Notes: generated from the sequence alone by a model not told the origin. 64,000 nucleotides of DNA from Myxococcota bacterium (GCA_044344255.1 JBIJDH010000003.1:32001-96000); one strand, 5' to 3'. Numbered from the stretch's first letter, positions 17,301 through 64,000 are shown. A program made the numbers and translations.

Positions 17301-17372
17301 AGTGGGCTGAGTGGGCTGAGCGGGCTGAGTGGGCTGAGTGGGCTGAGTGGGCTGAGTGGGCTGAGTGGGCGG
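17301..17372 (+). repeat. 9-bp VNTR (agtgggctg) x8
   Basis: Eight consecutive units read directly, two with substitutions, ending at the RBS of the downstream ALDH. Confidence 0.95.
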
Positions 17373-17383
17373 AGGGTGCAGCG

Positions 17384-18856: not shown

Positions 18857-18897
18857 GCGGGGCCGCCCCTGGGCTGGGGCGTGATAGGCCCGCGGCC

Positions 18898-19671: not shown

Positions 19672-19674
19672 GCG

Positions 19675-20655
19675 ATGTCGCCCGCGCCGCTGCGCCTACC
19701 GGCCGATCTCCGGTCGGAGGGCTGGGTGGGCTACCAGGCCCCCCCTGGCCACGAGGAGCGCCTGATCGCCGACCTCGGCGACCAGGGGCAGTGGTTCGGC
19801 CCGCTCTACCTCGTGCCGGGGGGGTACCGGCCCTGCCCTTGGGCGGCCAACGTCTGGCTCGAGCCCGAGCTCCTGCCGATCCGCTCGGTCGGAGACGCAG
19901 CGAAGCAGCTCCGGGCGAAGCAGCGCAGCTGGTGGCCGCTCTCGGTGTCCTCTCACCGCCGCCTCGCCCTCATCACCGAGGCCCTCCCGCACGTCTCGGC
20001 CAAGCCGCTCCGCTTCGGCGAGGCCGCTCGTCGGAGCCCGCTGGGCGCCTTTACGCTGATCGACGAGGGCTTGTTGCTCGCCTCGGCCCGCTGCTCGAGC
20101 CCCTTCCCGAACGGGGACCTCCACCTCGTCGAGGACCGCGAGGGGCCGCCGAGCCGGGCCTACCTCAAGCTGTGGGAGGCGCTGACCCGCCTCGGCCGGG
20201 CCCCCACCGCAGGCGAGACCTGCCTCGAGCTCGGCGCCTGCCCCGGCGGCTGGACTTGGGTGCTGCTCGGCGGTGGGGCCGAGGTCACCGCCGTCGATCG
20301 CTCGCACCTTGATCCCCGCCTGATGGGCCACCCCCGCCTCGAGTTCGTGCAGGGGGACGCCTTCGCCCTTCACCCGGATCGCTGCCCGCGGGCCTGGGAC
20401 TGGCTGTTCTCCGACGTGATCTGCTACCCGGAGCGCCTCTACGAGTTCGTCACCGCCTGGATCGCCTCGGGGCGCGTCTCGAACTTCGTGTGCACGTTGA
20501 AGTTCCAAGGCGATGACCACTACGGCGTCATCCGCGACTTCGCGGCGATCCCCGGAGGGCATGTGCTGCACCTCTCTCACAACAAGCACGAGCTCACCTG
20601 GATGCGGCTCGATCCGGCGGTCGAGCCCCTCGGGGCGCTCCCCGCCTCCCGCTAG
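19675..20655 (+). CDS. FtsJ-domain SAM methyltransferase, RlmM-like
   Basis: Motifs PSRAYLKLWEA, LELGACPGGWT, WLFSDV and TLK. Confidence 0.8.
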   Translation: MSPAPLRLPADLRSEGWVGYQAPPGHEERLIADLGDQGQWFGPLYLVPGGYRPCPWAANVWLEPELLPIRSVGDAAKQLRAKQRSWWPLSVSSHRRLALITEALPHVSAKPLRFGEAARRSPLGAFTLIDEGLLLASARCSSPFPNGDLHLVEDREGPPSRAYLKLWEALTRLGRAPTAGETCLELGACPGGWTWVLLGGGAEVTAVDRSHLDPRLMGHPRLEFVQGDAFALHPDRCPRAWDWLFSDVICYPERLYEFVTAWIASGRVSNFVCTLKFQGDDHYGVIRDFAAIPGGHVLHLSHNKHELTWMRLDPAVEPLGALPASR

Positions 20656-37084: not shown

Positions 37085-39577
37085 TCAGACGCCCCGCACG
37101 AGGCGCAGGCCCGACGACTCTTTGGGCCCTGCGGCGTCCGACTGGTGGCGGTGCGCGGCCCGAACGTGCACGGCGTTGGAGATCCAGCTCCCGCCTCGCA
37201 GGACGCGCGGGCCCGGGCCGGCGCCGGGGTGGAGCCGGAGGCGGCCGTCCGGGTCACGCGGCGGCCCCAGGGGATCCGGAGCCTCCAAGCACCAGTCTCG
37301 GACGTTGCCGCCCAGGCCTCGCACCCCGTACGGGCTGTGGTCCAGCGGGTAGGCGTGGATCGAGGCCAGCAGGGGCCGACCGGCGTGGCTGTCGCGCATG
37401 CAGCAGAAGGAGGGGTCGAGCTGATCACCCCAGGGAAACACCCGCTCGTCGGCTCCCCGGGCCGCCTTCTCCCACTCCACCTCGGACGGCAGGCGCCAGG
37501 GCAGGGCGTCCCGATCGGCGCGCCAGCGTGCGTAGGCGGAGGCGCCGTACCAGTCCACGAGCACGACGGGCCAGTCTGGCTCCCAGAGGTCGCCCTGGGC
37601 GTCGGGGACGAGGTGAAAGCGCCCGTCCCGGTCTCGACCGTAGATGAGGCCGGGCTCACCCACGCGGCCCACCCGGGGCGCGCAGGCCAGCGCCTCCGCC
37701 TCCCGCCCGTGGGCGACCAGCTCGTCGAGGAAGGCGATGTAGTCGGCGTTCGTGATCGGGTGCACCGCCATCGCGAAGGAGTCGACCCAGTACCGGGTCC
37801 GCGGGAGCGCCGAGGGGGCCCGGTCATCACCGCCCACCCAGGCCCAGCCCTCGGGGACGAGCCGCTCGGCGGCGTCGGCCGCGGCGGCGCGGTCTGCGGC
37901 GAGGTGGGCGACGGGCAGGGGGCGTGGGCCACCTCCGGGTCCGATGGCCTCCTGCGCCTCGCCGCGCGACAGGGCGACCGGGACGAGGAAGGATCGGTCT
38001 TCCCAGTGAAGCTCGGCGGTGTAGGAGCCGGCGGGGAGCTCCTCGTGGAGCGGGGTCTGGCGCGTGGGGAGGGGGGATGAGCGGCGCATGCGGCGCCCGG
38101 CGGGGAGCTCGGGGTGGAGGACGACGGCGGCGCCCGGCGGCTCGGTCGTCAGGGTGAGCATCGCGCGGCCCTCCACCCAGCGGCGCTCGCCCGGCCCGCC
38201 GTGGCGCGCCACCTTGGCCAGGCAGCGGGCTGTCTCGACGAGATCGCGGCGGATCTGCGCCGCTTCGTACCGCGCCCGCCACCGGAGGGTGAGCCGTCGG
38301 TGCGCGGGCGCGCAGGCGTCGTCGTAGGTGAGCGCGGCCTCGAGGCGGAGCTCGGCCTCCGCGTCCTGCGCCGCGGCCTCGCGGCTGAGGGCCTCGGCCT
38401 CGTCGGCGGCGGCCCACGCGGCGGACTTCGCCTCCGTGGCCGCCCAGAGCGGCAGCTCGGCGAGCGCGGCCGCCGCCTGAGCGCGGAGCCCGTCCGCGCG
38501 GGCGGTGAGGGCCGCCGCCGAGGCGAGCTCGGCCTCCGCCCGCTCAAAGAGGGCCAGCGCCTGGTCCTGGCGCTCGGCGGCGTCCAGCCAGCCGGCGAGC
38601 CGCTCGGCGAAGGCCACGCCGTCCTCGGGGCGGTCGATGGGGTCGCGGGACATGGCGCTGGCGCACACGCGCACCAGCTCTTCGGGCGGTGAGGGCGCGC
38701 CGGGCCCGCCCAGGGGGGGTGGCGGGCCTGCGGCGAGCGCCGCCAGGGCCTCCCGCGGGTCGGCCTGAGGGTAGGGAGGGTGGCCGGCGAGCAGCGTGTA
38801 CAGGATGGCGCCGAGGGCCCAGACATCCACCGCGCAGTCGGGCGGCGCCCCGCGGGCCTGCTCGGGGGCCATCCAGGCGGGCGTGCCGGCCACGAGGCGG
38901 TCGTCGGCCGGATCGTCGGCCGGGTCGTCGAGAGAGGCCGCGACGCCCCAGTCGATCACGTCGACCTCACCGAAGTCACCCACGAGCAGGTTGTCCGGCT
39001 TGAGGTCGCGGTGAACGACGCCGCGGGAGTGCGCGTAGCCCACGGCCTCGGCGGCGCGCCGCAGGGCGTCGACGAGGCGGCGCAGCGTCCAGCCGCTCGC
39101 CGTGGCGCTCCAGCCCGAGGGCTTCGCGGCGCGATGCAGGGCGTGGACCACGCGGCCGAAGGAGCGCCCGCCCGCCCGCCGCATGGTGGCGTAGGGCCGG
39201 CCGTCCCCGAGCACGCCGGCGTCGTAGACGGGCACGATGCCGGGGTGCTGGAGAGAGGCGGCGAGGCGCGCCTCGCGGTTGAACAGGGCGCGGAGCTCCG
39301 CGGCGAGGTCGGGCCGCGCGATCTTCATGACGACGGGCCGGCCGAGGAGGCGGTCCTCCACCAGCCACACTTCGCCCATCCCGCCCTGTCCAAGGGGCTC
39401 AAGGCGGGTGTAGCGCGCCTCGGGGGAGGAGAGCGCGCGCCAAGCGGCGGTGTCGCCTTCGGACGTCAGGGTCGTGTCGCCTTCGGGCTCGGCCTCTGGC
39501 TCGGCGCCCGGCTCGGCGCCGAGCGGGGGCGGTCCTGGGGGAGCGGGAGCGAGGTGAGCTCCGAGGGTCGGGCGCAT
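37085..39577 (-). CDS. Ser/Thr kinase fused to an FGE-sulfatase (SUMF1/EgtB-type) domain
   Basis: Kinase motifs LGQGGMG, HRDLKPDN, DWG and GTPAWMAPE. FGE motifs RLPSEVEWEKAARG, GNVRDW and RVLRGGSW. Start set at MRPTLG. Confidence 0.9.
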   Translation of the reverse strand: MRPTLGAHLAPAPPGPPPLGAEPGAEPEAEPEGDTTLTSEGDTAAWRALSSPEARYTRLEPLGQGGMGEVWLVEDRLLGRPVVMKIARPDLAAELRALFNREARLAASLQHPGIVPVYDAGVLGDGRPYATMRRAGGRSFGRVVHALHRAAKPSGWSATASGWTLRRLVDALRRAAEAVGYAHSRGVVHRDLKPDNLLVGDFGEVDVIDWGVAASLDDPADDPADDRLVAGTPAWMAPEQARGAPPDCAVDVWALGAILYTLLAGHPPYPQADPREALAALAAGPPPPLGGPGAPSPPEELVRVCASAMSRDPIDRPEDGVAFAERLAGWLDAAERQDQALALFERAEAELASAAALTARADGLRAQAAAALAELPLWAATEAKSAAWAAADEAEALSREAAAQDAEAELRLEAALTYDDACAPAHRRLTLRWRARYEAAQIRRDLVETARCLAKVARHGGPGERRWVEGRAMLTLTTEPPGAAVVLHPELPAGRRMRRSSPLPTRQTPLHEELPAGSYTAELHWEDRSFLVPVALSRGEAQEAIGPGGGPRPLPVAHLAADRAAAADAAERLVPEGWAWVGGDDRAPSALPRTRYWVDSFAMAVHPITNADYIAFLDELVAHGREAEALACAPRVGRVGEPGLIYGRDRDGRFHLVPDAQGDLWEPDWPVVLVDWYGASAYARWRADRDALPWRLPSEVEWEKAARGADERVFPWGDQLDPSFCCMRDSHAGRPLLASIHAYPLDHSPYGVRGLGGNVRDWCLEAPDPLGPPRDPDGRLRLHPGAGPGPRVLRGGSWISNAVHVRAAHRHQSDAAGPKESSGLRLVRGV

Positions 39578-39717
39578 GGCGGACTCTACCCTGCGGACCG
39601 CGCACAGCCGTGCACCGTCGAGGCCCGTCTGTGCACCGGCGTGCATGGACATGCACGCGGGGGCACAGCCCCCGCCCTCGGCGCGCCGGACGTCGGCTTG
39701 TCTTGCGGAGAGGCCGC

Positions 39718-39733
39718 TGGCATGATGCTTGCT
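39718..39733 (+). promoter_or_regulatory. Sigma-54 (-24/-12) promoter
   Basis: TGGCAT-GATGC-TTGCT, close to the consensus TGGCAC-N5-TTGCW, ending about 26 nt before the ATG at 39760. Confidence 0.75.
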
Positions 39734-39759
39734 CTTCATGCTGGCAACCCGGAGCTCTG

Positions 39760-40247
39760 ATGCGCGTCCTGCTCGGCCTCGCCCTCCTGATGACCGCCCC
39801 CGCCGTCGCCCTGGAGCCCTCCACCTGCGGCTGCGATCCCTCCGACGGCGAGGCCTGCCTCGCCGAGGCCTGGTCCGTGCCCTCCGAGCTCGAGGCCGTG
39901 CTGGACGGCTGCGAGGCCGATCCGAGCGGGATCTGCGCCGACGAGGCAGCCCTCTTCGAGCTCGCCCTCCTCTCGCCACCGGCCTGCCTGCCCACCGACT
40001 ATGCCGCCGTCCTCGCGGCCGCCGGGCCGTCCACGCCCGCTGGCGTCGGGCTCGGGCTCCTGATCCGGATCAAGAAGTCCCTCCCTCTGGGCTACGACGA
40101 CTGCCTGCAGAGGCCCCTCCCGGTGAAGGGATCGTCCCGCTGGCTCGAGTGTTTCGCGGTAGGGCTCGTCGGCGACACCGAGGACGGCGGCGCGCCCGGC
40201 GCTCCGGCGGGCCTGCCGACGGGCGGACCCGAGTGGGTCGGCGGGGA

Positions 40248-40251
<4 letters not shown>
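39760..40251 (+). CDS. Small secreted Cys-rich hypothetical protein
   Basis: Signal peptide MRVLLGLALLMTAPAVA and eight Cys. Confidence 0.7.
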
Positions 40252-43004
<2,753 letters not shown>

Positions 43005-52336: not shown

Positions 52337-53518
52337 ATGTACCCTCCTGCTGGTCAGCTTCCGATGGTGGAAGCGGCTTCAACCCATCCTGTCTCCCCGA
52401 TCCCCAGCGCCGCCGGGCGCGCCGCCGCCCCCTCCTTGGAGGGCCTCGGCTGGTCCAATTCATTCCTCTCCCAGCTCGACCTCGCCGACCTCCAGCCCTC
52501 GCGCCTCGGCCGCCTCCCTGTCGGGCGGGTGAGCTTCGAGAGCCACGGCCACTACACGCTCCTCACCGAGGTGGGGGAGGTGGCGGCCGAGCTCGGCGGG
52601 CGGGAGCGCGACCGCGCCGCCGCCTTCGACGACTGGCCCGCGGTCGGCGACTGGCTCCGCCTCCGTCCCCCCGAGGGCGACGGCCCCGCCCTCGTCCTCG
52701 GCCGCCTCGAGCGCCGGAGCAGCCTCTCCCGGGTCGCGCCGAGCGGGCGCCGGCAGGTGGTGGGGGCCAACCTCGACCTCGTCTTCATCACGAGCGCGGT
52801 CGAGGGCGACCTCAACCTGCGGCGCCTCGAGCGGTACCTCGCCGTCGCCCGCGAGGGGGGCTGCGAGCCGGTCATCCTCCTCACCAAGGTTGATCAGGCC
52901 CGCGACGCCGAGCGCGCCCGCCGGGAGGTGGAGCGGGTGGCGGAGGGCGCCCCGGTGCTCCTCTCGAGCGCGCTGCGGGGCGACGGCCTCGCGCAAGTGG
53001 AGGCGCTCCTGTCGCCCGGGGCCACCGCCGCCTTCGTGGGCTCGTCGGGGGTGGGCAAGTCCACCCTCGTCAACCGCCTCCTCGGCGCCGAGCTCGCGCC
53101 GACGGGCCCGGTGCGGGAGGAGGACGGCAAGGGCCGCCACACCACCACCGCCCGCCACCTCCGCCGGACCCCCAGCGGCGCCCTGGTCCTCGACACCCCG
53201 GGGATGCGGGAGCTGGCGATCGGGGACGCGCAGGACGGCGTGTCCGCCACCTTCGCCGACGTGCTCGCCCTCGCGGAGGGCTGCCGCTACCGGGACTGCC
53301 GCCACGCGGGCGAGCCCGGCTGCGCGGTGGCCGCGGCGCTCGAGGCCGGGGAGCTCGATCCCGACCGCCTCCGCAGCCTCCAGAAGCTTGAGCGGGAGGC
53401 CGCCTACGACGCGGCGCGGGACGATCCGCGCCGGGCGGCGGCGATGCGCGAGGCCTGGAAGAAGCGCACGATGAACGCGAGCGCCCGCGCCGCCTACCGC
53501 AAGGCCAACGGGGGCTGA
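52337..53518 (+). CDS. rsgA: Ribosome small subunit-dependent GTPase RsgA
   Basis: Motifs TKVD, GSSGVGKST, GRHTT and DTPGMRE, with the Zn finger CRYRDCRH.GEPGC. Confidence 0.93.
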   Translation: MYPPAGQLPMVEAASTHPVSPIPSAAGRAAAPSLEGLGWSNSFLSQLDLADLQPSRLGRLPVGRVSFESHGHYTLLTEVGEVAAELGGRERDRAAAFDDWPAVGDWLRLRPPEGDGPALVLGRLERRSSLSRVAPSGRRQVVGANLDLVFITSAVEGDLNLRRLERYLAVAREGGCEPVILLTKVDQARDAERARREVERVAEGAPVLLSSALRGDGLAQVEALLSPGATAAFVGSSGVGKSTLVNRLLGAELAPTGPVREEDGKGRHTTTARHLRRTPSGALVLDTPGMRELAIGDAQDGVSATFADVLALAEGCRYRDCRHAGEPGCAVAAALEAGELDPDRLRSLQKLEREAAYDAARDDPRRAAAMREAWKKRTMNASARAAYRKANGG

Positions 53519-53698
53519 GGCGAGCGCGGGCGGGGAGGGGGCGGTAGAGGCGAAGAGAGGCCGTCCGAGACGAGCTCGCGCTCCTGCCGTCCCAGACTGT
53601 GACCGGTGTCCCTCCAGTCCTCGGCTCCGACCCTGACAGCCTTTGAGGGGTTTGTGTCTTCCGTTCATCCGATAGGGGTGGGCCGTCCGGGCGGAGAT

Positions 53699-55984
53699 TC
53701 ACCTCGCCGCCCGGGCGACCTGCCGCTCCCAGGCGTCCAGGACCTGTGCCACCAGCATCTTCGCCGGGGTCTCTCCGTCCAGCTCCAGCGCCAAGAGGTC
53801 GGGTGCCAGCAGCCGCCCCCGTGCGCGGTCCTGCTCGTCGCGTGCGCCCAGTTGGGCAGGCGTCACTCCGCGTCGTCTGGCGCGCAGTCCGAGTGGGGCG
53901 TCCAGCCACACCCGCAGCCCTGCCGCGATGCTGCGGCCGAGGCCCCGGCCGACCAGGACCGCCGCGGTCCGCTGTGCGACGCCCAGCTCGGCCTGGATGG
54001 TGGCGTCGACATCGGGGTGCCCACAGCGGTCGGAGAGCGGGGAGCCTGGCATGTCCATTTGGGTGCGCGTGGCCAGCTCCCGGGCTCGTGCACCGGTGTC
54101 CAGAAAGGTCCAGCCCAGGACATCGGCGACAGCGCGGCCGAGGGTGGACTTCCCCGCGCCCGCCGTCCCGTCGATGGTGATAATAGGTAGGGTTGGCCCC
54201 GGCTTCTCGGCCACGACGAGCCAGAAGCGGGGCACTCCACAGTCGGCCGCTTCGGTGGGTTCGACGACTTTTCGCAGGACCAGACCTGCGAGATCGATGG
54301 CGGTGACCCAGTCCCCGAAGCTTCGGTGCAGGACCGTCACGGGCTCGGGCCGGCCAAACCAACGATATGCGCGGGGGCCCGTCCGGTCGTAGTCGCGCAC
54401 CCTCGCTGCGCCGTCCTCCGTCCACCGCGCGCCCGGCGGCGTGGCCGTGCGCAGCGGGTGCTCGGTCGATAGGACAAGGCGCCCGCCGGGTCTCAGCGCG
54501 CCTGCGGCGTTTCGCAGCGCCCCTCCGAGGTCTTCGACGTGGTCGAGTGAGCAGGGGGCGACAGCGGTGTCGAAGGGACCGGGCAGCGAGGCGGTGTCCA
54601 GCGATCCTTCAATCAGCTGGAATCCGGGCAAGGAGCGGCGCCGTGCGGCGGCCGCCATGGGCTGGCTAGCCTCCACGCCCACCACCTCGGCCCCGTGGGG
54701 TACCAGCAGAGCGGCAAAGCGCCCATCTCCGCAGCCCAGGTCGACGACCCGGTGTCCCTTGAGCCCCTCCGGGCCGGGCAGCGCCCGCAGCATGACCGCG
54801 TTGAGGACCCGGTGGTCGCGCAGCGCGCCCGACTGGGAGGCTGCGAGGTAGCGCGCGGCCCAGCCTGGCTCGGTGTAGGCCAGCGCCGGGGCCGACGGTT
54901 GGGTGGACTCCGCCGCGGGGCTGTCCAGCAGGCCGAGGGTGCGCAGCAGGTCGGCCACGGCACCGGCGGGGTCGTCCAGCGTTCCATGCCAGTCCGGCCG
55001 TGCCGCCGGATCACGGGGAGCCCGGCCCACCTCGAGCGGCACGATGCTCAAGCCAACTGCACGGTCAGCCGGCGGTGGGGACACCTCGCCGATGCGTACA
55101 AGCGTGGCGCCGCTCTCGCCGGGGCTCACGAGGCGGACTCGGCCGCGCGACCATCCCAGCAGTCGCTCCCGCAGCATCGTATATCCGGAATGCCCGGCGC
55201 CATCGGTGAGCAGGCCGACGGGGACCGGGGCGCCCCCTGTGAGCTCCAACGCAGGGTCTGGCCCGGTGACCAGACCCAAACGCGATTGGACGCTCCCTGG
55301 CAGCACCTGGAGGGCCACCCACCAGGCTGCCGCGGGCCAGGCCGCCTCTGCGACGCCGATGACGGGCACACAACAGGTGCGCTGTAGCGTGGTCGCGTCC
55401 GCGCCGCGAAGGAGCACCGCGTCGGGGACCATGTGCAGCGCCGAGAGGCCGGCCTGCGCTGGCTTCGTGGAGCTCCGCCCGCCGGGCAGCGACACGCCGC
55501 ATGTGACGTGCAGGTGGGCGGCCGGGGGTCCGAAGGCCAGCAGCATCGCGCCCAGGACGAGGCGGTGCTCCGGCTCTCCCGCCGTGCCGCCGACCTCGAC
55601 CACGCGGCGCGGCGCCTCTGGCCAGGAAAAGGCGCTGGCGAGGGTGGGCAGAAGGCGAGGCGAGGCGTCGATGCCGTCCAGTCCTGCCAGTCCCCGGCGG
55701 AGCAACCCAGCGAGGCTGGTGTCTGCTTCGGGTGCAGGCCGGAAGCCGGGAACGAGAAAGGCCGCCCGTCCCACGTCGGCGTCAAATGCCAGACCATCGT
55801 CGGTTTCGATCACATCTCCAAAGTGGGCGTTGGAGAATCCTTTGAGATCGCCCTGAAGGCAGGGCTCCACCTTGCGGTAGTCCACTGGACCCGCGCTTCG
55901 CGCCCACCAGCGGGCGAGGACGGCCGCGCAGCTCCCCTTGCCGATGTCAGCGGCCACGCCGCCCGTGACGAGGACCCAGCCCAT
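53699..55984 (-). CDS. Fusion of a divergent CTP-synthase N-terminal (amidoligase) domain, a class I SAM methyltransferase and a cytidylate kinase-like domain
   Basis: PyrG-like: VTGGVAADIGKG, KVEP, GDV..TDDG..FDADVG, VEVGGT.G and TKP.Q. MTase: VVDLGCGDG, FD, L.PGGRLV.S.EHP. Cmk-like: ITIDGTAGAGKST..LGW.FLDTG and VLVGR. The start overlaps the upstream stop (TGATG). Confidence 0.85.
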   Translation of the reverse strand: MGWVLVTGGVAADIGKGSCAAVLARWWARSAGPVDYRKVEPCLQGDLKGFSNAHFGDVIETDDGLAFDADVGRAAFLVPGFRPAPEADTSLAGLLRRGLAGLDGIDASPRLLPTLASAFSWPEAPRRVVEVGGTAGEPEHRLVLGAMLLAFGPPAAHLHVTCGVSLPGGRSSTKPAQAGLSALHMVPDAVLLRGADATTLQRTCCVPVIGVAEAAWPAAAWWVALQVLPGSVQSRLGLVTGPDPALELTGGAPVPVGLLTDGAGHSGYTMLRERLLGWSRGRVRLVSPGESGATLVRIGEVSPPPADRAVGLSIVPLEVGRAPRDPAARPDWHGTLDDPAGAVADLLRTLGLLDSPAAESTQPSAPALAYTEPGWAARYLAASQSGALRDHRVLNAVMLRALPGPEGLKGHRVVDLGCGDGRFAALLVPHGAEVVGVEASQPMAAAARRRSLPGFQLIEGSLDTASLPGPFDTAVAPCSLDHVEDLGGALRNAAGALRPGGRLVLSTEHPLRTATPPGARWTEDGAARVRDYDRTGPRAYRWFGRPEPVTVLHRSFGDWVTAIDLAGLVLRKVVEPTEAADCGVPRFWLVVAEKPGPTLPIITIDGTAGAGKSTLGRAVADVLGWTFLDTGARARELATRTQMDMPGSPLSDRCGHPDVDATIQAELGVAQRTAAVLVGRGLGRSIAAGLRVWLDAPLGLRARRRGVTPAQLGARDEQDRARGRLLAPDLLALELDGETPAKMLVAQVLDAWERQVARAAR

Positions 55985-56790
55985 CAGGCCGCCGCCTTCG
56001 CCGAAGCGCCAGCGTGGGGGGAGCGTCGTAGCCAGTCGGCCTCGGGTGTCACCCGCGCCGTCCGGAGGTCCAGGCCCGCCTGCCGCCCCAGTGTTGCGAG
56101 GAGGCGCGCGGACAGGGCGAGGGTGGCGAGGGGGTCGACGGGGCAGGGGAACGTAATGATCTGGACGGTCGGCGCATGTTCGGCGATCCAACCGGCGACA
56201 GCCTGGGGGAGGGAGTCGCCCAAGTAGAGCACCGTGCCGCCTCGCCGAGCCAGTCGTGCGTGCCACCCGTGGCCAAGCTCGGATGTCGCAGTGGCGCTGA
56301 GGTCCAGCTCGGGTACCTTCGCTCTCACGCTGCCGGATAGGCTCTGCAGGGCCTCGCTTCCGGCGTCCGTGACCATCAAGAGCTCGTGTCGGTCCAGTGG
56401 AGGCAGGACCAGCTCCTCGGGCCGCCATGGGGTGAGCTCCAGCTCCTCTCGAAGGCGCAGCGCGGCGGCCTCGACCCAATCCAGCGGCACCCAGGCGTGG
56501 GGGTCCACCCCGGCGGGCACCTCCAAGCGTGGCGCCCACGGGTTGCCCCGCGCTCCGGCCTCACAGAGCAGCAGATCGGGCTGGAGCCCCATCGGCATCG
56601 CGGCGCTGCGGCTGACGTGAACGTGCACCATCCGCCCATGCGGCGCGTCGGGGAGCGCCGCCGTTGCGGGACGGCCGAGCTGCATGAAGGTCGCTGCCGC
56701 TGCTCGGGCGATCGCGAGGGAGGCGCCGATGCCGGTCCAGAGCATGGGCGCGTGGTCGAGGTGGGCCGAGATGTCGGGGGGCCGGATCAT
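55984..56790 (-). CDS. Compact double-SIS (GlmS-C/FrlB/PGI-PMI-like) sugar-phosphate-binding protein
   Basis: GIGAS, VSRS, AKVPE and SELGHG correspond to SIS/GlmS motifs (GxGxS, SxSG, KxxE, ExxHG). GGAG RBS upstream. Confidence 0.65.
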   Translation of the reverse strand: MIRPPDISAHLDHAPMLWTGIGASLAIARAAAATFMQLGRPATAALPDAPHGRMVHVHVSRSAAMPMGLQPDLLLCEAGARGNPWAPRLEVPAGVDPHAWVPLDWVEAAALRLREELELTPWRPEELVLPPLDRHELLMVTDAGSEALQSLSGSVRAKVPELDLSATATSELGHGWHARLARRGGTVLYLGDSLPQAVAGWIAEHAPTVQIITFPCPVDPLATLALSARLLATLGRQAGLDLRTARVTPEADWLRRSPHAGASAKAAA

Positions 56791-56921
56791 GATTGCTCCA
56801 TTTAGGGTCTTGGAGAGGGACGCGCCGGCGAAGCGGAGGCGGACAGAGCTCGGCCGTGTTCAAGAGCGCAGTCGGCGCCCCCCCGGGTGAACAAACGCCC
56901 GCCCGAGGCCACCGCGGGGAG

Positions 56922-59816
56922 GTGAAGCTCCGCCGCCCCCCCGCGCTCTCTCCTTCGTGCACCTCGCCCCCGCTCCGCGCCAGGCTCGCCCGCGCCCTGG
57001 TGTCGCTGGCGCTGGTCGCCGCGGCCCGGGGCGCGCCCGCCGGGGCCCGGCCTGCCGACGCCGCGCTCGGCGGCCCGGTTGACCTCATCCTCGGGCCCGG
57101 CGCCTGGTGGGCGGAGGGCACCGAGCTCACGGACGGGCTGTGCTCGGCCCGCTTCCGTGAGGGGATGCTCATCCCGGTCGTGGCCCGCGGCGCCCCCGAC
57201 CGGCGCCTCGGCCTCGCCTTCGTGGGGGAGGGTGACCTCCGGCTCGAGCTCCCCGCGCGCGCCGACGCCTGGGCCTTCGCCAACCTCGCCGTGCTGCGCT
57301 TGGGCGCCGATCGCGCCGCCATGGCCCCGATCGCACACCAGGAGCGCCCCTTCACCGACACCTTCAGCCGCGCGCTGCTGCTCAGCGCCGATCCCGCGCT
57401 CTCCATCGTCACCGCCGGGCTCGATCCTGTGGGGGGCGGGGTGGTGGGCGGACAGCCAGGGTCCGACGTCGACGCCGAGCTGGTGGTCACGAGCGACCGC
57501 GGGGAGGGCACGCGCCGCCTGCTCGCCGAGGCCCTCCTCACCGAGCGCACGCGGCGCCTCCAGCAGGTGGGGCTCGACCCCCGAGAGCTGCTCCGCCTCG
57601 ACCGGGTGCTCGCCGACGGCCTCGGCGCGCCCGGCGCCTCGCTCCGCCTCCTCGCCGACTACCGCACCGAGGCACGCTTCCCCACCGGCCGAGGCGAGGC
57701 CGGGCCGGACCCGGGCGAACCCTGGCTGACCTGCCTCCGGGACGGCACCGATCACGGCGACACGGGGCTGCGCGCGGTGGCGTTCGCCGCAGGCACCGAT
57801 GGGGAGCGGGTGCCGCACTACCGGACCCTCGCCGGCCTGCCCTTCCCCGAGGTGGGCGGTGAGCCCGGGCCGAGCCCGAGCTTCGTCGACCCGCGGGTCG
57901 AGCTGGAGGTGGAGGTGAAGCCGACCCGCTCCCGCCTGGAGCTGGAGGTCCACAGCCGCGCCCGCGTCACGCTCACCGCCGCCGAGCCCGGCGTGGCGCG
58001 CCTGCTGCTCCGGCTGCCGAGGGAGGAGGCGGTGGCCGGGAGCTGGGCGCTCGAGCGCGCCGCCCTCGACGGCGGAGCTGGGTTGAGCTGGGCCGAGGCG
58101 CCGATCCTCGAGCCGCTCCCCCTCGAGGCGGGTTCGCGGGTGGCGCAGGGCCTGCCCCCAGAGCGGAGCGAGGCCGGGGGGACGCTCGGCCTGGCCTACG
58201 AGGGCAAGGGCAGCGACAGCCCGATGAAGGGGCCGACCTCCACGGCCTCCGCGGCCCCCACCCCGGGCGTGCAGGGCGGCGCCGGCTGGTTCGTGCGACC
58301 GCAGATCCCCCGCACCTTCGGGGAGCGTGTCGCCACCCCCCACGATGCGCCCCTGGCCGTGCTCCTCGCGCTGCCCCGGCCGCTCGACCGCGGGGAGACC
58401 CTCACCCTGAGGCTCGCCTGGCGGGCACGCTGGACCTACGCCGCCTGGGGGAGCATCCGCAGCCCCGAGGACGGGGACCGGCCGATCTCGCTCGGCGCCT
58501 CGACGGGGGCCCGGAGCCTGCTGCCGGAGCTGGTCCCGGCGCGGGGAGGCACCCCTTGGACCGGGACGGTGACGGTCGGCCTGCCGCCGCGGGACCTCGA
58601 CCTCGCGGTCTCGGGCACCACCGCCGCCGAGCGGGTGGACGAGGGCGGCTGGCGCTGGACCACCTCGACCCTCGACCACGCCCGCCGGCCGGCCCTCGCG
58701 GTCGGGCGCTGGGTGGACCGGGCCGAGGCCGCCCTCCCCGACGCCGGCCTGCCTGCGGTGCGGGCCCACACCTTCAGCGGAGGGCCCGCCACCCTCTCGG
58801 AGCTGGGCCCCGAGGTGCGGCGGGTGCTCATCTTCCTCGGCCGCTTCCTCCCCACCGCGGGCCTCGGCGAGTTCGACGTCTTCGAAGATCCCCAGACCTT
58901 CACCACCGACGTCGACCGCGGCGCCGACGCCCGCGCGAGCGGCCTCGGCGCCATCTCGCGCACCGCGGTGGTCGACACCGTCGACGCCGACCGGGCCGCG
59001 CGCCAGGACCGCGCCGCCCCCCAGACCGCCCTGGCGCGCCAGGTGGCGGCCTCCGTCTGGGGCCAGCGGGTGGGGCCGGCCAACCGGCGCGAGGCCTGGC
59101 TCACCCGCGGCCTCGCCGACCTCTACGGGGCGCTCTACCTCCGCGCCGCGCAGGGTGAGGCAGGCTTTCTTGCCTTCGAAGCGCGCCTCGATCGCGCCCG
59201 CGCCGCCATCGAGCGCCCGCCGGACGGCAACCGCCTCGACGGGCGGCCCGCGGTCCCCCGCCTCTCGCTCACCGACCCCGGCTCCCTCCGCGTCGAGGAC
59301 CCCGGGCTGCTCGACCAGGCCGCCTTCTTCTTCCTCGGCCGGGTGCTCCGGGAGCATGTGGGTGACGACGCCTACTTCGCCGGCCTCGACCGCCTCGCCC
59401 GCGACACGGCGGGCGGGCGAGTGACCACCGACCAGCTCCGCGTGGCCCTCGAGGCCAGCTCGGGCCTCCCCCTCGCCGACCTCTTCGACACCTGGGTCTA
59501 TGGGGGCCTCGTGCCCGGCCTCCGCCTCGACTACGCGCAGGCCCCGGACGGCGGGCTCGAGGGCTGCCTCGAGAGCGACGTGCCCTTCGGCGTCCTCGAG
59601 GTGCCCGTCGTCGTCCGCCGAGCGAGCGGGGAGCGGGTGGCCGCCGCCCGCGTGCGGGTCGTGGATGGACAGGGGGCCTTCACCGTGCCGGCCGACCCGC
59701 GCTGGGCCGCCGAGCGGCTGGAGGTGGCGCTCGACCCCCTGAGCCAGCTCCCGGCCCGCGCGCGGGACGTGCAGCGAAAGGAGCGGGTCGCCTGCGGGGC
59801 GTCCACAGCGCCCTGA
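56922..59816 (+). CDS. Large exported M1-aminopeptidase-fold protein with a degenerate zinc motif (start uncertain)
   Basis: The C-terminal segment LARQVAASVWGQRV....EAWLTRGLA.LY aligns to the M1 HELAHQW.G..V....WL.EG.A region, followed by VG.D..F and F..WV. Confidence 0.65.
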   Translation: MKLRRPPALSPSCTSPPLRARLARALVSLALVAAARGAPAGARPADAALGGPVDLILGPGAWWAEGTELTDGLCSARFREGMLIPVVARGAPDRRLGLAFVGEGDLRLELPARADAWAFANLAVLRLGADRAAMAPIAHQERPFTDTFSRALLLSADPALSIVTAGLDPVGGGVVGGQPGSDVDAELVVTSDRGEGTRRLLAEALLTERTRRLQQVGLDPRELLRLDRVLADGLGAPGASLRLLADYRTEARFPTGRGEAGPDPGEPWLTCLRDGTDHGDTGLRAVAFAAGTDGERVPHYRTLAGLPFPEVGGEPGPSPSFVDPRVELEVEVKPTRSRLELEVHSRARVTLTAAEPGVARLLLRLPREEAVAGSWALERAALDGGAGLSWAEAPILEPLPLEAGSRVAQGLPPERSEAGGTLGLAYEGKGSDSPMKGPTSTASAAPTPGVQGGAGWFVRPQIPRTFGERVATPHDAPLAVLLALPRPLDRGETLTLRLAWRARWTYAAWGSIRSPEDGDRPISLGASTGARSLLPELVPARGGTPWTGTVTVGLPPRDLDLAVSGTTAAERVDEGGWRWTTSTLDHARRPALAVGRWVDRAEAALPDAGLPAVRAHTFSGGPATLSELGPEVRRVLIFLGRFLPTAGLGEFDVFEDPQTFTTDVDRGADARASGLGAISRTAVVDTVDADRAARQDRAAPQTALARQVAASVWGQRVGPANRREAWLTRGLADLYGALYLRAAQGEAGFLAFEARLDRARAAIERPPDGNRLDGRPAVPRLSLTDPGSLRVEDPGLLDQAAFFFLGRVLREHVGDDAYFAGLDRLARDTAGGRVTTDQLRVALEASSGLPLADLFDTWVYGGLVPGLRLDYAQAPDGGLEGCLESDVPFGVLEVPVVVRRASGERVAAARVRVVDGQGAFTVPADPRWAAERLEVALDPLSQLPARARDVQRKERVACGASTAP

Positions 59817-60034
59817 GCCTCCTGCTGAGCACGGTGAGCCCTCTGCTGGGCGCGGTCCGTCCGCCGCGGGCATCCGCCACGGGCCGAGGGTGGAGACGGG
59901 CGCCTTTGGGTGTACCTGGAAGCGTGTGTCCCGCTCGCGAGAGGTCTTATTGTAGGTGCATGATGGTGTCCGAGTCGGCCGCACCGGCGCCGCCCGGCAC
60001 ACCTCTCCGACACCGCTCCGAATTCGAGGAACCG

Positions 60035-63000
60035 ATGCACCGAGCCCCCCCGCTTCGCCCCTTGGTGCTGCTCGCCACCTCTCTCCTCGCCTGCGGTCCC
60101 GAGGATGGGGGCACCCCGATCGACAGCGCGCCCTCGGAAGAGCCGACGGCGCCGCTCGCGGGGGCCGCTACACCGGACGGCGCCTCAGACGGCTGGCTCG
60201 CCACGGTTCAGGAGCGCATCGCCGCCGAAGGTCGGGCCTTCCACCTGCGCGAGGGCGCATTCATGGCGGACCTGCCGACCGCGGGCCTGAGCGCGCGGCT
60301 GGACGCGGAGGGGGTCGAGGTCTCGGGTGAGGGGGGCGAGGTGCTGCGCCTCCGCAGCTCGGCCTGGGGGCGTGGCGGGGACCTCCTCTCGATCGGGGCG
60401 CGCGCGCCGGCGCTGGGGGACTGCACCGCCGCCCTGGACGCCTCTGGCACCTGCGTCCGTCGGGTCGAGCTGGAGGAGGCCGGGCTCACCGAGTGGTGGG
60501 TGGGCCTCGGAACGGGGCTGGAGCAGGGCTGGGTGGTCGAGGCCCCGCCCGCGGGTGAGGGGGCCCTGGTGGTGGTGGTAGACGTCGAGGGGGCCACAAG
60601 CATCGACGCCGACGGCGAAGAGGCCACGCTCTTCGACGGCGAAGGGCGCATGTGGATCGTCGGCGGCGTCTCGGCCTGGGACACGGAGGGCGAACCGCTG
60701 CCCACGCGGCTCCTGGCCACGGACGCGGGGCTGCGCGTGGAGGTCGACGACACAGGGGCGGTCTACCCGGTGGAGATCGATCCGGTCTACACCACCGCGG
60801 CCACGACGCTGACCGGGGAGGCGACAGGCAATTGGTTCGGCTGGTCGGTGTCGGGCGCGGGGGACGTGAACAACGACGGCTACGACGACGTGATCGTGGG
60901 GGCGTGCAATTATTCCTCCGGCACTGGTCGCGCCTATGTGTACACGGGGTCGGCCAGCGGGGTGTCGACCACCGCGGCGACGACGCTGACCGGGGAGGCG
61001 ACGGGCATCCGATTCGGCTGGTCGGTGTCGGACGCGGGGGACGTGAACAACGACGGCTACGACGACGTGATCGTGGGGGCGTTCAAGTATTCCTACTCCA
61101 CCGGTCGCGCCTATGTGTACACGGGGTCGGCGAGCGGGGTGTCGACCACCGCGGCGACGACGCTGACCGGGGAGGCGACGGGCAACCAATTCGGCTTGTC
61201 GGTGTCGGGCGCGGGGGACGTGAACAACGACGGCTACGACGACGTGATCGTGGGGGCGCTCAGGTATTCCTCCAACATCGGCCGCACCTATGTGTACGCG
61301 GGGTCGGCCAGTGGGGTATCGACCACCGCGGTGACGACGCTGACCGGGGGAGGGTCGGGCTACTACTTCGGCTTGTCGGTGTCGGGCGCGGGGGACGTGA
61401 ACGGGGATGGCTACGACGACGTGATCGTCGGGGCGTACGGGTATTCCTCGGACACGGGCCGGGCCTATGTCTACGCGGGGTCGGCGAGCGGGGTGTCCTC
61501 GACCGCGGCAACGACGCTGACCGGGGAGGCGACGGGCAACCAATTCGGCTGGTCGGTGTCGGACGCGGGGGACGTGAACAACGACGGCTACGACGACGTG
61601 ATCGTGGGGGCAACAGGGTATTCCTCGGGGACGGGCCGCGCCTATGAGTATGCGGGGTCGGCGAGCGGAGTGTCGACCACTGCCGCGACGACGCTGACCG
61701 GGGAGGCGACGTACAGCGAATTCGGCAACTCGGTGTCGGGCGCGGGGGACGTTAACAACGACGGCTACGACGACGTGATCGTGGGGGCAAGAGGGTTTTC
61801 CTCCACCGGCCGCGCCTATTTGTATGCGGGGTCGGCGAGCGGGGTGTCGACCAGCGCGGCGACGACGCTGACCGGGGAAGCGTCGTCCTACTATGGCCAT
61901 TCCGTGTCGGACGCGGGGGACGTGAACAACGACGGCTACGACGACGTGGTCGTGGGAGCGTCCTATTATTCCTACACCACCGGCCGCGCCTATGTGTACC
62001 TGGGCTACAGTGACGACGCTGACGGAGACGGATACGCAGTGGCCCTGGACTGCGACGACACGGACGCGGCGATCAACCCCGGCGCCACCGAGGTCTGTGA
62101 CGCATCAGACAATGACGAAGACTGCGACGGGCACACCGACGACGCCGACAGCTCGGCCAGCGCCGCCACGAAGACCAGCTACTACCTGGACAGCGACAGC
62201 GACGGATACGGCGGCTCCACCACCGGCACCTATTGCGACCTCCCCACCGGCTACACCGCGACATTTGCCGACTGCGATGACAGCGTCGCCGCCGTCAACC
62301 CCGGCGCCACCGAGGTCTGTGACGCCGCCAACACCGACGAGGACTGCGACGGCCTCAAGGATGACGCCGACAGCTCGGCCAGCGCCGCCACGAAGAGCAG
62401 CTACTACCTGGACAGCGATGGCGACGGCTTCGGTGGCTCCACCACTGGTGCTTATTGCGACCTCCCCACAGGCTACACCGCGACCTCCACAGACTGCGAT
62501 GACAGCGTCGCCACCGTAAACCCGGGCGCCACGGAGGTCTGCGACGCCGCCGACACCGACGAGGACTGCGACGGCCTCGCCGATGACGCCGACAGCTCCG
62601 CCGCCGCCGCCACGATGACCACCTGGTATCGGGACGCCGACTCCGACGGCTACGCAGGCACGGCGACGACCAGCACCTGCGACATGCCCACCGGCTATCT
62701 GTCCACGAGCACCGACTGCGACGACACCCAGGTTGCGGTGAACCCCGGGGCCACCGAGATCTGCGACGCCGCCAACACCGACGAGGACTGCGACGGCCTC
62801 TCTGATGACGCCGACAGCTCCGCCTCCGCCGCGACGAAGACCGGCTATTATCTGGACGGCGACGGCGATGGGTACGGCAGCACCACGAGCGCTGCCTGGT
62901 GCGATCTGCCCCCGGGGTACGCGACGGGCAGCACGGACTGTGACGACTTCGCGACCGGAGTCAACCCCGGCGCCACGGAGGTCTGCGACGCCGCCAACAC

Positions 63001-64000
63001 CGACGAGGACTGCGACGGCCTCGCCGATGACGCCGACAGCTCCGTCTCCGCCGCCACCTATGGCGTCTACCACGCAGACGTAGACGGCGACGGTTGGGGA
63101 GATCTGGACGCTCCGGTGGGGGCCTGCGACGCGTCTCTCTCTGCGGTGGTGGACGACACCGACTGCGACGATCTCGACCCCGACATCAACCCCGATGCCA
63201 CCGAGGTCGCCGGCGACAGCGTGGACCAGGACTGTGACCTCAGCGAGCTCTGCTATGTGGACGCCGACGACGACGGATGGCGGACCGACACGGAGGTCGC
63301 CTCGACCACCCTGGACTGCAGCGGCCTCGGGGAGGCCCTCGCCTCTGACCCCGCTGATGACTGCGACGACGCCGACGCGGCCTTCCACCCCGACGCCACC
63401 GAAGACGACTGCGCCGATCCGAATGACTACAACTGCGACGGCTTCGTCGGCTACGCGGATGCGGATGGCGATGGCTACGCGGCCTGCGAGGAGTGCGACG
63501 ACGGGCTCTTCGCGGTGAACCCGAGCGCCACGGAGCTCTGCAACGGTATCGACGACAACTGCGACAGCAGCACCGATGGAGCCGACGCGGTCGGCGCCAC
63601 CGACTGGTACGCCGACCTCGACGGTGACCTCTACACCGACCCGACGGACGCTGTCGCCTCCTGCGACCCCCCCGAGGGCTACGCCGCGGCCTCGGCCGAG
63701 GCGGACTGTGACGATGGTGACGAGACGATCAACCCCGAGGCGCTGGAGGGAGTGGACGACGCGGTCGACCAGGACTGCGATGGCCTTGAGCTCTGCTACC
63801 TCGACCAGGACGACGACGGCTATCGGCCCGACGAGACGAGCACGCTGGAGAGCGCAGACCTGCTCTGTGACGCCTCCGGCGAGGCCACCGCCGAGGACCC
63901 GAGCGGGGACTGCGACGACCTCGAGGCGACGGTGTACCCGGGCGCCACCGAGGTCGCCGGGGACGGCGTCGATCAGGACTGCGACAGCATCGACCTCGCG
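60035..64000 (+). CDS. Giant surface lipoprotein with seven FG-GAP repeats and many MopE-type repeats (runs off the window edge)
   Basis: Manual translation gives MHRAPRFAPLVLLATSLLAC (lipobox), (F/Y)G.SVS.AGDVN.DGYDDV.VGA x7, then DCDD...NPGATEVCD repeats. There is no stop in the window, so it is absent from the ORF track. Confidence 0.9.
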   Translation, partial: MHRAPPLRPLVLLATSLLACGPEDGGTPIDSAPSEEPTAPLAGAATPDGASDGWLATVQERIAAEGRAFHLREGAFMADLPTAGLSARLDAEGVEVSGEGGEVLRLRSSAWGRGGDLLSIGARAPALGDCTAALDASGTCVRRVELEEAGLTEWWVGLGTGLEQGWVVEAPPAGEGALVVVVDVEGATSIDADGEEATLFDGEGRMWIVGGVSAWDTEGEPLPTRLLATDAGLRVEVDDTGAVYPVEIDPVYTTAATTLTGEATGNWFGWSVSGAGDVNNDGYDDVIVGACNYSSGTGRAYVYTGSASGVSTTAATTLTGEATGIRFGWSVSDAGDVNNDGYDDVIVGAFKYSYSTGRAYVYTGSASGVSTTAATTLTGEATGNQFGLSVSGAGDVNNDGYDDVIVGALRYSSNIGRTYVYAGSASGVSTTAVTTLTGGGSGYYFGLSVSGAGDVNGDGYDDVIVGAYGYSSDTGRAYVYAGSASGVSSTAATTLTGEATGNQFGWSVSDAGDVNNDGYDDVIVGATGYSSGTGRAYEYAGSASGVSTTAATTLTGEATYSEFGNSVSGAGDVNNDGYDDVIVGARGFSSTGRAYLYAGSASGVSTSAATTLTGEASSYYGHSVSDAGDVNNDGYDDVVVGASYYSYTTGRAYVYLGYSDDADGDGYAVALDCDDTDAAINPGATEVCDASDNDEDCDGHTDDADSSASAATKTSYYLDSDSDGYGGSTTGTYCDLPTGYTATFADCDDSVAAVNPGATEVCDAANTDEDCDGLKDDADSSASAATKSSYYLDSDGDGFGGSTTGAYCDLPTGYTATSTDCDDSVATVNPGATEVCDAADTDEDCDGLADDADSSAAAATMTTWYRDADSDGYAGTATTSTCDMPTGYLSTSTDCDDTQVAVNPGATEICDAANTDEDCDGLSDDADSSASAATKTGYYLDGDGDGYGSTTSAAWCDLPPGYATGSTDCDDFATGVNPGATEVCDAANTDEDCDGLADDADSSVSAATYGVYHADVDGDGWGDLDAPVGACDASLSAVVDDTDCDDLDPDINPDATEVAGDSVDQDCDLSELCYVDADDDGWRTDTEVASTTLDCSGLGEALASDPADDCDDADAAFHPDATEDDCADPNDYNCDGFVGYADADGDGYAACEECDDGLFAVNPSATELCNGIDDNCDSSTDGADAVGATDWYADLDGDLYTDPTDAVASCDPPEGYAAASAEADCDDGDETINPEALEGVDDAVDQDCDGLELCYLDQDDDGYRPDETSTLESADLLCDASGEATAEDPSGDCDDLEATVYPGATEVAGDGVDQDCDSIDLA
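60809..62002 (+). repeat. Seven about 177-bp (59-aa) near-identical FG-GAP coding repeats
   Basis: ctgaccgggg anchors at 60809, 60986, 61163, 61340, 61517, 61694 and 61868. Confidence 0.9.
62048..63050 (+). repeat. About 222-bp (74-aa) MopE-type coding repeats, with more divergent copies continuing to the window end
   Basis: gactgcga(c/t)gac anchors at 62048, 62270 and 62492 and onward. Confidence 0.8.

Follow-up and report, generated by a model that had tools for sequence, protein, structure and literature searches.

What would a single polypeptide make if it joined a CTP-synthase-like amidoligase, a methyltransferase and a cytidylate-kinase-like domain, and what would the product be for? 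This question is raised by a 64,000-nucleotide stretch of DNA from a Myxococcota bacterium (GCA_044344255.1 JBIJDH010000003.1:32001-96000; hereafter the window), on whose minus strand gene A (P0023, 268 aa; 55984..56790) is followed by gene B (P0001, 761 aa; 53699..55984). The original prediction, made from the sequence alone, read B as a triple fusion and as a candidate pathway to a modified pyrimidine nucleotide. Our best explanation as a whole, to which we assign a probability of roughly 0.45, is that a horizontally acquired A+B cassette makes a methylated pyrimidine nucleotide, which is more likely to be a conflict molecule than a housekeeping metabolite.

CTP synthase (CTPS) is among the most conserved enzymes of life, and we found no report in the literature of a CTPS paralogue recruited to another job. 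A full-text search likewise found no literature on a fusion of CTPS, methyltransferase and kinase or on a part played by CTPS in defence against phages. The family has no specific model in Pfam, NCBIfam or PADLOC, and no Protein Data Bank (PDB) entry with this architecture was found. This agrees with the earlier remark that no characterised protein is built this way: none turned up in curated families, the PDB or the literature. Our analysis went beyond that prediction in adding the partner gene A, a Poseidoniales-labelled clade that shares a 3.2-kb block, and known or candidate defence genes at three of nine loci.

Gene B is an authentic four-part fusion

As first described, gene B is a stop-free open reading frame of 761 codons. 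We used third-position G+C (GC3) to pick the coding frame in the window, where G+C is 72%, and obtained a GC3 of 0.82 for the B frame. Because GC3 falls to just 0.52-0.65 in the 185-codon run-on of the same frame upstream, we place the start of B at the ATG at 55984, the start originally assumed. Neither a sigma-70-like promoter nor an intrinsic terminator was found in 53450-57000, a result that is uninformative in a 72% GC genome.

Logan contigs from four of four other lake-water runs matched 53650-56850 with no substitutions, indels or joints. Single contigs crossed the junction between the CTPS-like and methyltransferase parts (54180-56147, 54258-56121 and 54293-55619), the junction between the methyltransferase and the kinase (53650-54376 and 53960-54247) and, likewise, the A/B junction. 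Since the four other runs agree and about two dozen relatives have the same design, the fusion is not an assembly artefact. The assembly or frameshift error that had been named as a possible refutation is not the case here.

A protein search at E ≤ 0.001 returned 21 proteins, 20 of which are true relatives at 40-62% identity; the other, P0022, was rejected as an unrelated methyltransferase. Sixteen of the 20 are 758-833 aa long, and 15 of these carry Pfam matches to all three named families (P0003 has no CTP_synth_N match). Three are kinase-less proteins of 603-626 aa, and one is a 423-aa N-terminal form. A metagenome scan yielded a second clade at ~30% identity and 39-45% G+C (the low-GC clade), with six full 746-aa genes and three B genes that are cut by contig ends or partly covered. 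In pairs from the low-GC clade with amino-acid identity of at most 97%, the ratio of nonsynonymous to synonymous substitution rates (dN/dS) was 0.15-0.20 for B; by part it was 0.155 for the synthase, 0.247 for the middle, 0.101 for the methyltransferase and 0.169 for the kinase. All four parts of B are under purifying selection (dN/dS 0.10-0.25), the lack of which among homologs had been named as a refuting condition.

The three domains named originally were all found by Pfam above gathering cut-offs. These matches were partial in length, and a 21-member family profile compared with PDB sequences extended them to whole domains; NCBIfam and an AlphaFold2 model, which was confident (pLDDT 86.3), complete the evidence for the four-part layout. 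Pfam reaches just the opening part of two models, the initial 72 of the 265 positions of CTP_synth_N and the initial 38 of the 211 of Cytidylate_kin, and the glutaminase appears dead (see below), which could be taken to indicate a decaying or purely regulatory pseudoenzyme fusion without catalysis. We consider this very improbable: all four parts are under purifying selection, the model is confident, and the catalytic residues do not vary even between clades of about 30% identity.

The CTP-synthase-like unit appears intact as a synthase and dead as a glutaminase

The synthase (amidoligase) domain comprises B residues 1-215 (55340..55984, minus strand). Pfam CTP_synth_N matched residues 3-73 (37.5 bits), and the family profile matched CTP synthase in the PDB over 3-230 (E 4.6e-22). 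In VIA comparisons, model residues 1-~355 spanned whole CTPS chains (E. coli 3-538) with Z 25-28 and ~346 residues aligned. Because this alignment runs along entire CTPS chains, the middle of B (residues 216-360; 54905..55339, minus strand) is a shrunken amidotransferase domain and not a linker. No PDB sequence match was found for profile positions 216-370; the assignment comes from the model alignment and invariant columns.

The middle had been called degenerate and without glutaminase motifs. We observed no invariant or near-invariant Cys or His at residues 216-360 in alignments of 21 and 19 sequences, and a triad glutaminase is therefore impossible. The loss of motifs is thus real, but the region is structurally retained as a pseudo-amidotransferase, with D261, Y268, R274, W278, R324, R329, D331 and W332 invariant.

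We compared the synthase site with that of Drosophila CTPS, in which Lys16, Lys38, Asp70 and Glu145 contact the phosphate passed to uracil O4 (PMC8325340). The corresponding residues of B, with partly identical numbering, are K16, K38, D70 and E130 (PMC8325340). All 19 aligned members, drawn from both clades, have them unchanged, which bears out the earlier remark that the P-loop Lys and the acidic Mg/ATP residues appear retained. In the same enzyme, Asp40 contacts uracil, Asp152 and Glu154 contact the ribose, and Lys192-Thr193-Lys194 contacts the triphosphate (PMC8325340). The B counterparts of Asp40, Asp152 and Glu154 are invariant Glu40, Glu137 and Glu139, and those of Thr193 and Lys194 are Thr/Ser173 and Lys174, but no Lys stands in the place of Lys192 (PMC8325340). 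T134 also belongs to the conserved substrate-contact set of B, with E40, E137, E139, T173 and K174. R193 and D261 are invariant as well and were placed by eye at the CTPS ATP-ribose contacts Arg216 and Asp312.

The motif variants quoted originally (VAAD, GEPEH and STKP) are present in B. The nucleotide-binding segments do differ from those of PyrG, but mostly through conservative substitution (D to E). The residues responsible for O4 phosphorylation and for holding UTP are kept or conservatively replaced, which lends support to the amine-ligation reading (PMC8325340).

In E. coli CTPS the ammonia-tunnel gate consists of Pro54, His57 and Val60 (PMC9138612). The B family has Asn in place of Pro54, Phe/Ile in place of His57 and Val/Ile at Val60, so that two of the three are replaced (PMC9138612). 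Against the PyrG equivalogs, B scored 32.1 bits versus a cut-off of 462.75 (TIGR00337) and 36.3 versus 308 (NF003792). Judged by its residues, the glutaminase of B appears dead and the synthase active site intact. B would work like CTP synthase at the first step, and falls outside PyrG by triad, tunnel gate and equivalog score. We conclude that the CTPS-like unit probably still activates a uridine-type ribonucleoside triphosphate with ATP, using nitrogen that would not come from a built-in glutaminase.

The methyltransferase is conserved and the kinase is variable

B residues 364-595 (54200..54895, minus strand) form a class I S-adenosylmethionine (SAM)-dependent methyltransferase of the 3e8s/3bkw/3g5l/ToxA-like subgroup. 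Four Pfam families matched residues 399-510 above cut-off (Methyltransf_23/11/25/12, 52-57 bits), and the family profile matched the methyltransferase 3bkw over 6-215 (E 5.9e-26). The nearest structure was 3e8s (with S-adenosylhomocysteine; Z 26.8, root-mean-square deviation 2.0, 32% identity). Motif I reads LDLGCGDGR, and LRDH, SLDH, TEHPxR, RW and PRF are also conserved. D415, G417, G419, G421 and E438 are invariant, so both the class I motif I and the acidic motif II are present. Most of the neighbours whose function is known are N-methyltransferases (ToxA, XrdM, MitM, CypM, CalS10 and TylM1-type). The methyltransferase is the most constrained part of B (dN/dS 0.10) and is present in every family member longer than 590 aa; the kinase is not.

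RNA is a frequent substrate of class I methyltransferases of this size, and weak Pfam matches to RrnaAD and FtsJ were seen. B might thus modify RNA (uridine or cytidine of tRNA or rRNA) or another macromolecule instead of free nucleotides, which we hold to be improbable. Pfam found no RNA-binding domain in B, and the distribution of the family is unlike that of a translation factor. In addition, B retains the triphosphate contacts Thr173/Lys174 and the ribose contacts of CTPS, an enzyme that binds free UTP (PMC8325340).

B residues 599-761 (53702..54190, minus strand) form a P-loop kinase derived from cytidylate kinase. The extents given originally, ~54880-54200 for the methyltransferase and ~54190-53699 for the kinase, agree with residues ~369-595 and 599-761. 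Pfam Cytidylate_kin matched residues 602-639 (39.1 bits), and the family profile matched E. coli Cmk over 4-223 (1kdo, E 1.4e-22). The kinase keeps the P-loop and the GR..GR, RA.RR lid and RD..D motifs; D605, G606, G611, R680, R701, R704, D716 and D719 are invariant in the B family, and K612 is present in at least 90%. The partial match to the Cmk equivalog reached 40.2 bits versus a cut-off of 135.55. The nucleoside monophosphate (NMP)-binding insert is short in the window protein and varies from 0 to ~60 residues among relatives. We take the CMP-binding elements of Cmk to be the Arg of the DSGAxYR helix, the Cmk insert and the GRD Asp. The DSGAxYR Arg has no counterpart in the low-GC clade or in P0018, and the GRD Asp is replaced by varied residues. 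By its CMP-binding elements and its score, the kinase of B appears to lie outside Cmk.

CTPS and Cmk both lead towards CTP, the synthase residues of B are intact, and canonical CTPS can use free NH3. B could on these grounds be an NH3-dependent CTP synthase plus CMP kinase for an auxiliary, glutamine-independent CTP supply in stress or salvage, with the methyltransferase unrelated or regulatory. We give this idea little credence. As the original prediction had proposed to confirm, the same 8.18-Mb genome carries at other places a canonical pyrG (421.7 bits) and, fused to aroA, a canonical cmk (248.2 bits); the methyltransferase, and not the kinase, is the most constrained part and the one found in every member longer than 590 aa; and the family is extremely rare.

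The housekeeping cmk (locus L003, G000:C65:61474-65115) is the C-terminal part of a 712-codon stop-free frame that has a start like AroA (5-enolpyruvylshikimate-3-phosphate synthase). Bifunctional AroA/Cmk is a known arrangement.

Gene A encodes a predicted double-SIS-fold partner

Gene A (GC3 0.84) lies directly upstream of B, and its stop overlaps the start of B by one base (TGATG). Genome G005 has an ortholog of A (55% identity) directly upstream of its B, and a 234-235-aa counterpart abuts B in eight of the eight low-GC loci that include the region. The same architecture and neighbourhood, which the original prediction had suggested looking for, is thus found in other genomes, with about two dozen relatives of B and with A beside B in G005 and eight low-GC loci. 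The high-GC and low-GC forms of A are linked by profile-profile comparison (hhalign E 8.8e-5, 177 columns) and have WTG.G, (E/D)xGHG and a C-terminal D.LR in common. We obtained a dN/dS of 0.12-0.29 for A in pairs of at most 97% amino-acid identity. A-type proteins are as rare as B (10 matches in 5.8 billion clusters).

Sequence comparison gave A no family. No match was seen against Pfam or NCBIfam at E ≤ 0.001/0.01 (SIS model included), against PADLOC-DB 2.0, or against PDB sequences below E 0.7. With the model of A, the top 16 Foldseek matches (E ≤ 0.001) were all GlmS/GFAT isomerase domains or phosphosugar isomerases. In VIA, 50 of the top 50 rows were SIS-family phosphosugar enzymes or regulators (Z 10.9-7.1), almost all of the double-SIS GlmS/NagB-II/FrlB group. 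The best of these were the glucosamine-6-phosphate (GlcN-6-P) deaminases 2cb0, 2dec and 1j5x (Z 10.7-10.9), and further matches included the GlmS/GFAT isomerase domain, AgaS, NagB-II and FrlB/FraB. The ESM Atlas, independently, placed A with SIS clusters (TM 0.76 to a cluster that is 100% PF01380). GHG, K158, S60 and D252/R255 are invariant in A and may be compatible with GlmS motifs. These comparisons predict gene A to be a divergent double-SIS-fold protein of the GlmS-isomerase, GlcN-6-P-deaminase or FrlB kind. A predicted complex of B 1-757 with A 15-256 scored 0.00 without controls and bears neither way on binding.

The enzymes nearest to A in fold all form or cleave C-N bonds at the C2 position of hexose-6-phosphates, and with the glutaminase lost the nucleophile is not fixed. 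The methyltransferase profile also matches N-methyltransferases of nucleoside diphosphate-linked amino sugars, among them CalS10 and dTDP-3-amino-3,6-dideoxyglucose N,N-dimethyltransferase. A+B might then build a natural product of the nucleotide-linked or nucleoside kind, or a surface component: A would isomerise or aminate a hexose-6-phosphate, the CTPS unit would ligate the sugar amine, instead of ammonia, to C4 of a uridine nucleotide or supply CTP for activation, and the methyltransferase would N-methylate the amino sugar. We regard this as unlikely. Only two genes are conserved, with no nucleotidyltransferase, glycosyltransferase or exporter alongside, and the mobile, cross-domain, defence-island distribution described below would be unusual for a surface or antibiotic pathway.

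The A+B module is rare and mobile

A HMMER search of 1.84 billion representatives returned 26 proteins at ≥97.8 bits, followed by a plateau of ordinary PyrG at ≤90.6 bits. Among the genomes of relatives, 2 of 61 carry the family, G005 being the only other carrier among 60. A phylum sample of 401 genomes contained it in none besides the window's own; a second match there (42.6 bits, 573-aa frame) looks like an ordinary pyrG. In a scan of genome contigs that was dominated by a generic methyltransferase pattern, none of the 80 loci kept from the 600 rows listed matched the CTPS-like part. No relatives were found in IMG/VR viral contigs, phage records or plasmid records.

An A protein 91% identical to that of locus L090 carries the source label Candidatus Poseidoniales archaeon, and the low-GC clade is therefore probably archaeal. 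Cassettes that are 96-98% identical in DNA share only a block of ~3.2 kb (A and B with about 200 nt on the upstream side and about 50 nt on the downstream side), and their flanks are unrelated. With a GC3 of 0.82-0.84, the cassette ranks below all other real genes of the window (0.85-0.95). The A+B module is rare and moves between unrelated contexts and between bacteria and archaea. It may be a self-contained two-gene module acquired by horizontal transfer, a proposal covered jointly by the probability given above for the best explanation as a whole.

Imperfect palindromes (ACAAGGGnnCCCTTGT type; ACAAGGG..CCCTTGT form) occur in intergenic DNA on both sides of archaeal cassettes (L090 100-190; L095 1143-1225 and 4551; L092 491-570; L096 2596). 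They occur in up to three tandem copies, ~31 nt apart, where homology between loci breaks, and may be repetitive extragenic palindromic (REP)-like elements or recombination sites. We considered an integron cassette for the archaeal block with its flanking palindromes and rejected it, as the adjoining genes point both ways. A shared contig for the A-type protein P0176 and the kinase-less P0020 was also rejected (P0176 belongs to the low-GC type, P0020 to the high-GC one).

Two outlying proteins deserve mention. P0046 (708 aa, 90.6 bits with the family profile) is a C2-domain protein with a partial CTP_synth_N match at 401-480 and is probably a eukaryotic oddity. Locus L089 (4238-10730, 42% GC) encodes a stand-alone CTPS-like unit with pseudo-amidotransferase (374 aa) that lacks a methyltransferase, a kinase and an A partner. 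The gene before it encodes a 2Fe-2S ferredoxin and the one after it a NADAR-domain protein. Genes for a concentrative nucleoside transporter and for an extracytoplasmic function (ECF) sigma factor are found upstream, and a CHU_C type IX secretion domain is encoded in a large neighbour gene. A 453-aa gene upstream of the CTPS-like protein was tried as an A homologue and rejected as not homologous.

Known or candidate defence genes flank some of the cassettes

We surveyed nine loci with readable flanks (the window, G005 and low-GC loci) using PADLOC and Pfam. The G005 locus (L088, G005:C16:37000-56900) has a Zorya-I-like set downstream, convergent with the cassette (ZorD 455 bits, ZorA, ZorB; 12320-19843, minus strand), and a DRT-like gene with reverse transcriptase and HRDC domains upstream (4623-6905, plus strand). 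Locus L096 has a GmrSD-like gene, a Macro gene and a DEDDh+WYL gene (candidate system PDC-S48), and locus L093 has a T5orf172 gene (candidate system PDC-S57).

The Zorya-I-like operon of G005 encodes a ZorD-like SNF2 protein of 957 aa, a ZorA-like protein of 777 aa, a ZorB-like protein of 367 aa and an unassigned 407-aa gene product. The HRDC and reverse-transcriptase protein is 760 aa long. Two FGE-sulfatase-domain proteins are also present, and the cassette is surrounded as in a defence island.

Proposed function

In the reading that we prefer, the CTPS-like unit would bind a uridine-type ribonucleoside triphosphate and phosphorylate its O4 with ATP. Ammonia or another amine, from a source other than glutamine, would displace the phosphate. 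A may deliver this nitrogen, given that the proteins closest to it in fold set free or pass on nitrogen at the C2 position of hexose-6-phosphates; it would do so, for example, by deaminating an amino-sugar phosphate, or would present a phosphosugar amine. The methyltransferase would act on the product, most plausibly on nitrogen, to yield an N-methylated nucleotide of cytidine, for instance N4-methyl-CTP. The monophosphate form would be fed or recycled by the kinase domain, a dispensable part. The product could act as a nucleotide analogue against viruses or microbes, much like that of viperin with CMP kinase. Of the amine ligation, methylation and change of phosphorylation state proposed originally, the scheme as such is still the most economical reading, with the UTP-site residues kept or conservatively replaced, but the kinase need not be a CMP kinase.

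We consider a conflict molecule more likely than a housekeeping product because the module is rare, mobile across contexts and domains of life, and sometimes found in defence islands. The distribution fits a conflict role better than a housekeeping one; the evidence is thin (three of nine loci).

Several observations weigh against this proposal. In the synthase, CTPS Lys192 is not kept in the B family, where S, T or another residue is found (PMC8325340), and the ATP-adenine region is shortened in an alignment with the genome's own PyrG. The methylation site is guessed from structural neighbours at 20-34% identity. The kinase domain is missing in six relatives (P0017, P0019, P0020, P0028, P0032 and P0033), P0013 (833 aa) has GSGATT in place of GxGK(S/T)T and so lacks the P-loop Lys, and the NMP-binding segment is deleted in the archaeal clade and in P0018. 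Because the domain, the P-loop Lys or the NMP-binding segment is missing in these relatives, the kinase step is dispensable or different, and the kinase of B need not phosphorylate CMP. For gene A, the model is moderate (pLDDT 65.8, N-terminal half poor, C-terminal half good), its Z values of 9-11 exceed the background by little, and the two clades do not conserve the residue at the position of the GlmS general base.

The genomic context adds further points of this kind. Known or candidate defence genes lie beside just three of the nine loci, and the other six, the window included, show none. Since only three of nine loci are involved and the low-GC loci are close kin, the adjacency is no statistical enrichment. 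The window neighbours are ordinary (RsgA, a type II secretion system (T2SS)-type ATPase, a sulfatase and secreted proteins), and three of them scanned with PADLOC gave no match. A and B had no system-specific match in PADLOC-DB 2.0. B gave generic methyltransferase and P-loop matches only (mad2 over the methyltransferase, 62 bits; pVip-kinase and VakA over the P-loop, 20 and 16 bits).

There is a substantial likelihood that A+B is a new module for defence or antibiosis by a small molecule. It is a candidate for such a system because it is mobile across bacteria and archaea and sometimes stands beside Zorya, reverse-transcriptase or GmrSD-type genes, and it is short and clonable as a candidate for a nucleotide-analogue system. 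The scheme predicts a pyrimidine nucleotide not yet described and a new way to feed nitrogen to an amidoligase. Either result, defence or antibiotic, would be useful for enzymology and for making modified nucleotides. A bolder version, which we see as a long shot, is that A+B is a new kind of chemical immune module of bacteria and Marine Group II archaea in which a SIS-fold amino-sugar-phosphate deaminase takes over from the glutaminase as the source of nitrogen, and UTP or CMP is converted to an N-methylated cytidine triphosphate that poisons or mutagenises viral polymerases.

Other features of the window

The region 56791..56921, between gene A and the start of its upstream neighbour, is a probable divergent intergenic and promoter region, inferred from a start-codon survey. 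The neighbour, divergent from A, is a 1007-codon open reading frame at 56793-59816 (plus strand) with a probable GTG start at 56922, GGGGAG upstream of it and a signal-peptide-like N-terminus. With a GC3 of 0.94 and no Pfam, NCBIfam or PADLOC match, it encodes a large secreted protein. We considered this 1007-aa protein as a third component and rejected it, as it has no family match and no counterpart in any other locus.

Further along, 59834-64000 (plus strand) encodes a protein of >1388 aa with seven FG-GAP and nine MopE-type metal-binding repeats. At 37085-39979 (minus strand) a Ser/Thr kinase is joined to an FGE-sulfatase domain in one protein, and a 1091-aa sigma-54 activator with a long N-terminal extension lies at 39729-43004 (plus strand). 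Such gene content is typical of myxobacteria-like genomes.

Comparison with known systems

CTP synthase (PyrG/CTPS; CTP_synth_N plus GATase; 1s1m, 7mih, 7dpt) is the model for the first half of B, with which it shares the two-domain fold over residues 1-~355. The P-loop and the Lys16/Lys38/Asp70/Glu set for O4 phosphorylation are alike, and the base, ribose and Thr-Lys triphosphate contacts are kept or conservatively changed (PMC8325340). B differs in having no Cys-His-Glu triad, in an amidotransferase domain smaller by roughly 100 residues, in two replaced NH3-gate residues (PMC9138612) and in the loss of Lys192 (PMC8325340). Unlike CTPS, B carries two further enzymes in the same chain and has a SIS protein as its partner.

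The kinase aligns with the full-length Cmk profile (TIGR00017; 1kdo/2cmk) and shares with it the P-loop DGxAGxGK(S/T)T, GR..G, RA.RR and RD..D. It differs from Cmk in having no GRD Asp and in an NMP-binding helix and insert that are variable or deleted.

The methyltransferase shares the class I fold and the same C-terminal lid with 3e8s, 3bkw, 3g5l and ToxA (5je5; Z 26.8, 22.7, 22.7 and 23.1), and the TEHP, Y..G.R..W and H motifs with 3bkw. Those proteins, in contrast, are stand-alone and 220-245 aa long, and ToxA is 20% identical to B. ToxA is the toxoflavin N-methyltransferase; 3e8s, 3bkw and 3g5l are structural-genomics proteins without an assigned substrate.

The predicted fold of A is that of double-SIS enzymes (GlmS 1moq; 2cb0, 1j5x; NagB-II 8fdb; FrlB/FraB), with Z 9-11 and ~200 of 268 residues aligned. 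Its TG.G(A/F) loop, S.S(A/G) loop and (E/D)xGHG presumably fall at the GlmS phosphate loops and ELKHGP motif. A is shorter than these enzymes (235-268 aa versus 320-370 aa), is 10-17% identical to them and is never fused to an Ntn amidotransferase.

For the system as a whole, a parallel is viperin with CMP kinase, known as prokaryotic pVip-kinase fusions and as eukaryotic viperin-CMPK2. The logic is alike in joining enzymes that supply CTP to one that uses SAM to modify a pyrimidine nucleotide, and the P-loop of B gave weak PADLOC matches to pVip-kinase and VakA (E 6.8e-5 and 2.9e-3). The resemblance is one of architecture only, as B has no radical-SAM domain and its SAM enzyme is a methyltransferase. 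If the idea of a chemical immune module were true, A+B would be a methyltransferase-based counterpart of viperin with CMPK2, rebuilt from three housekeeping enzymes of pyrimidine and SAM metabolism.

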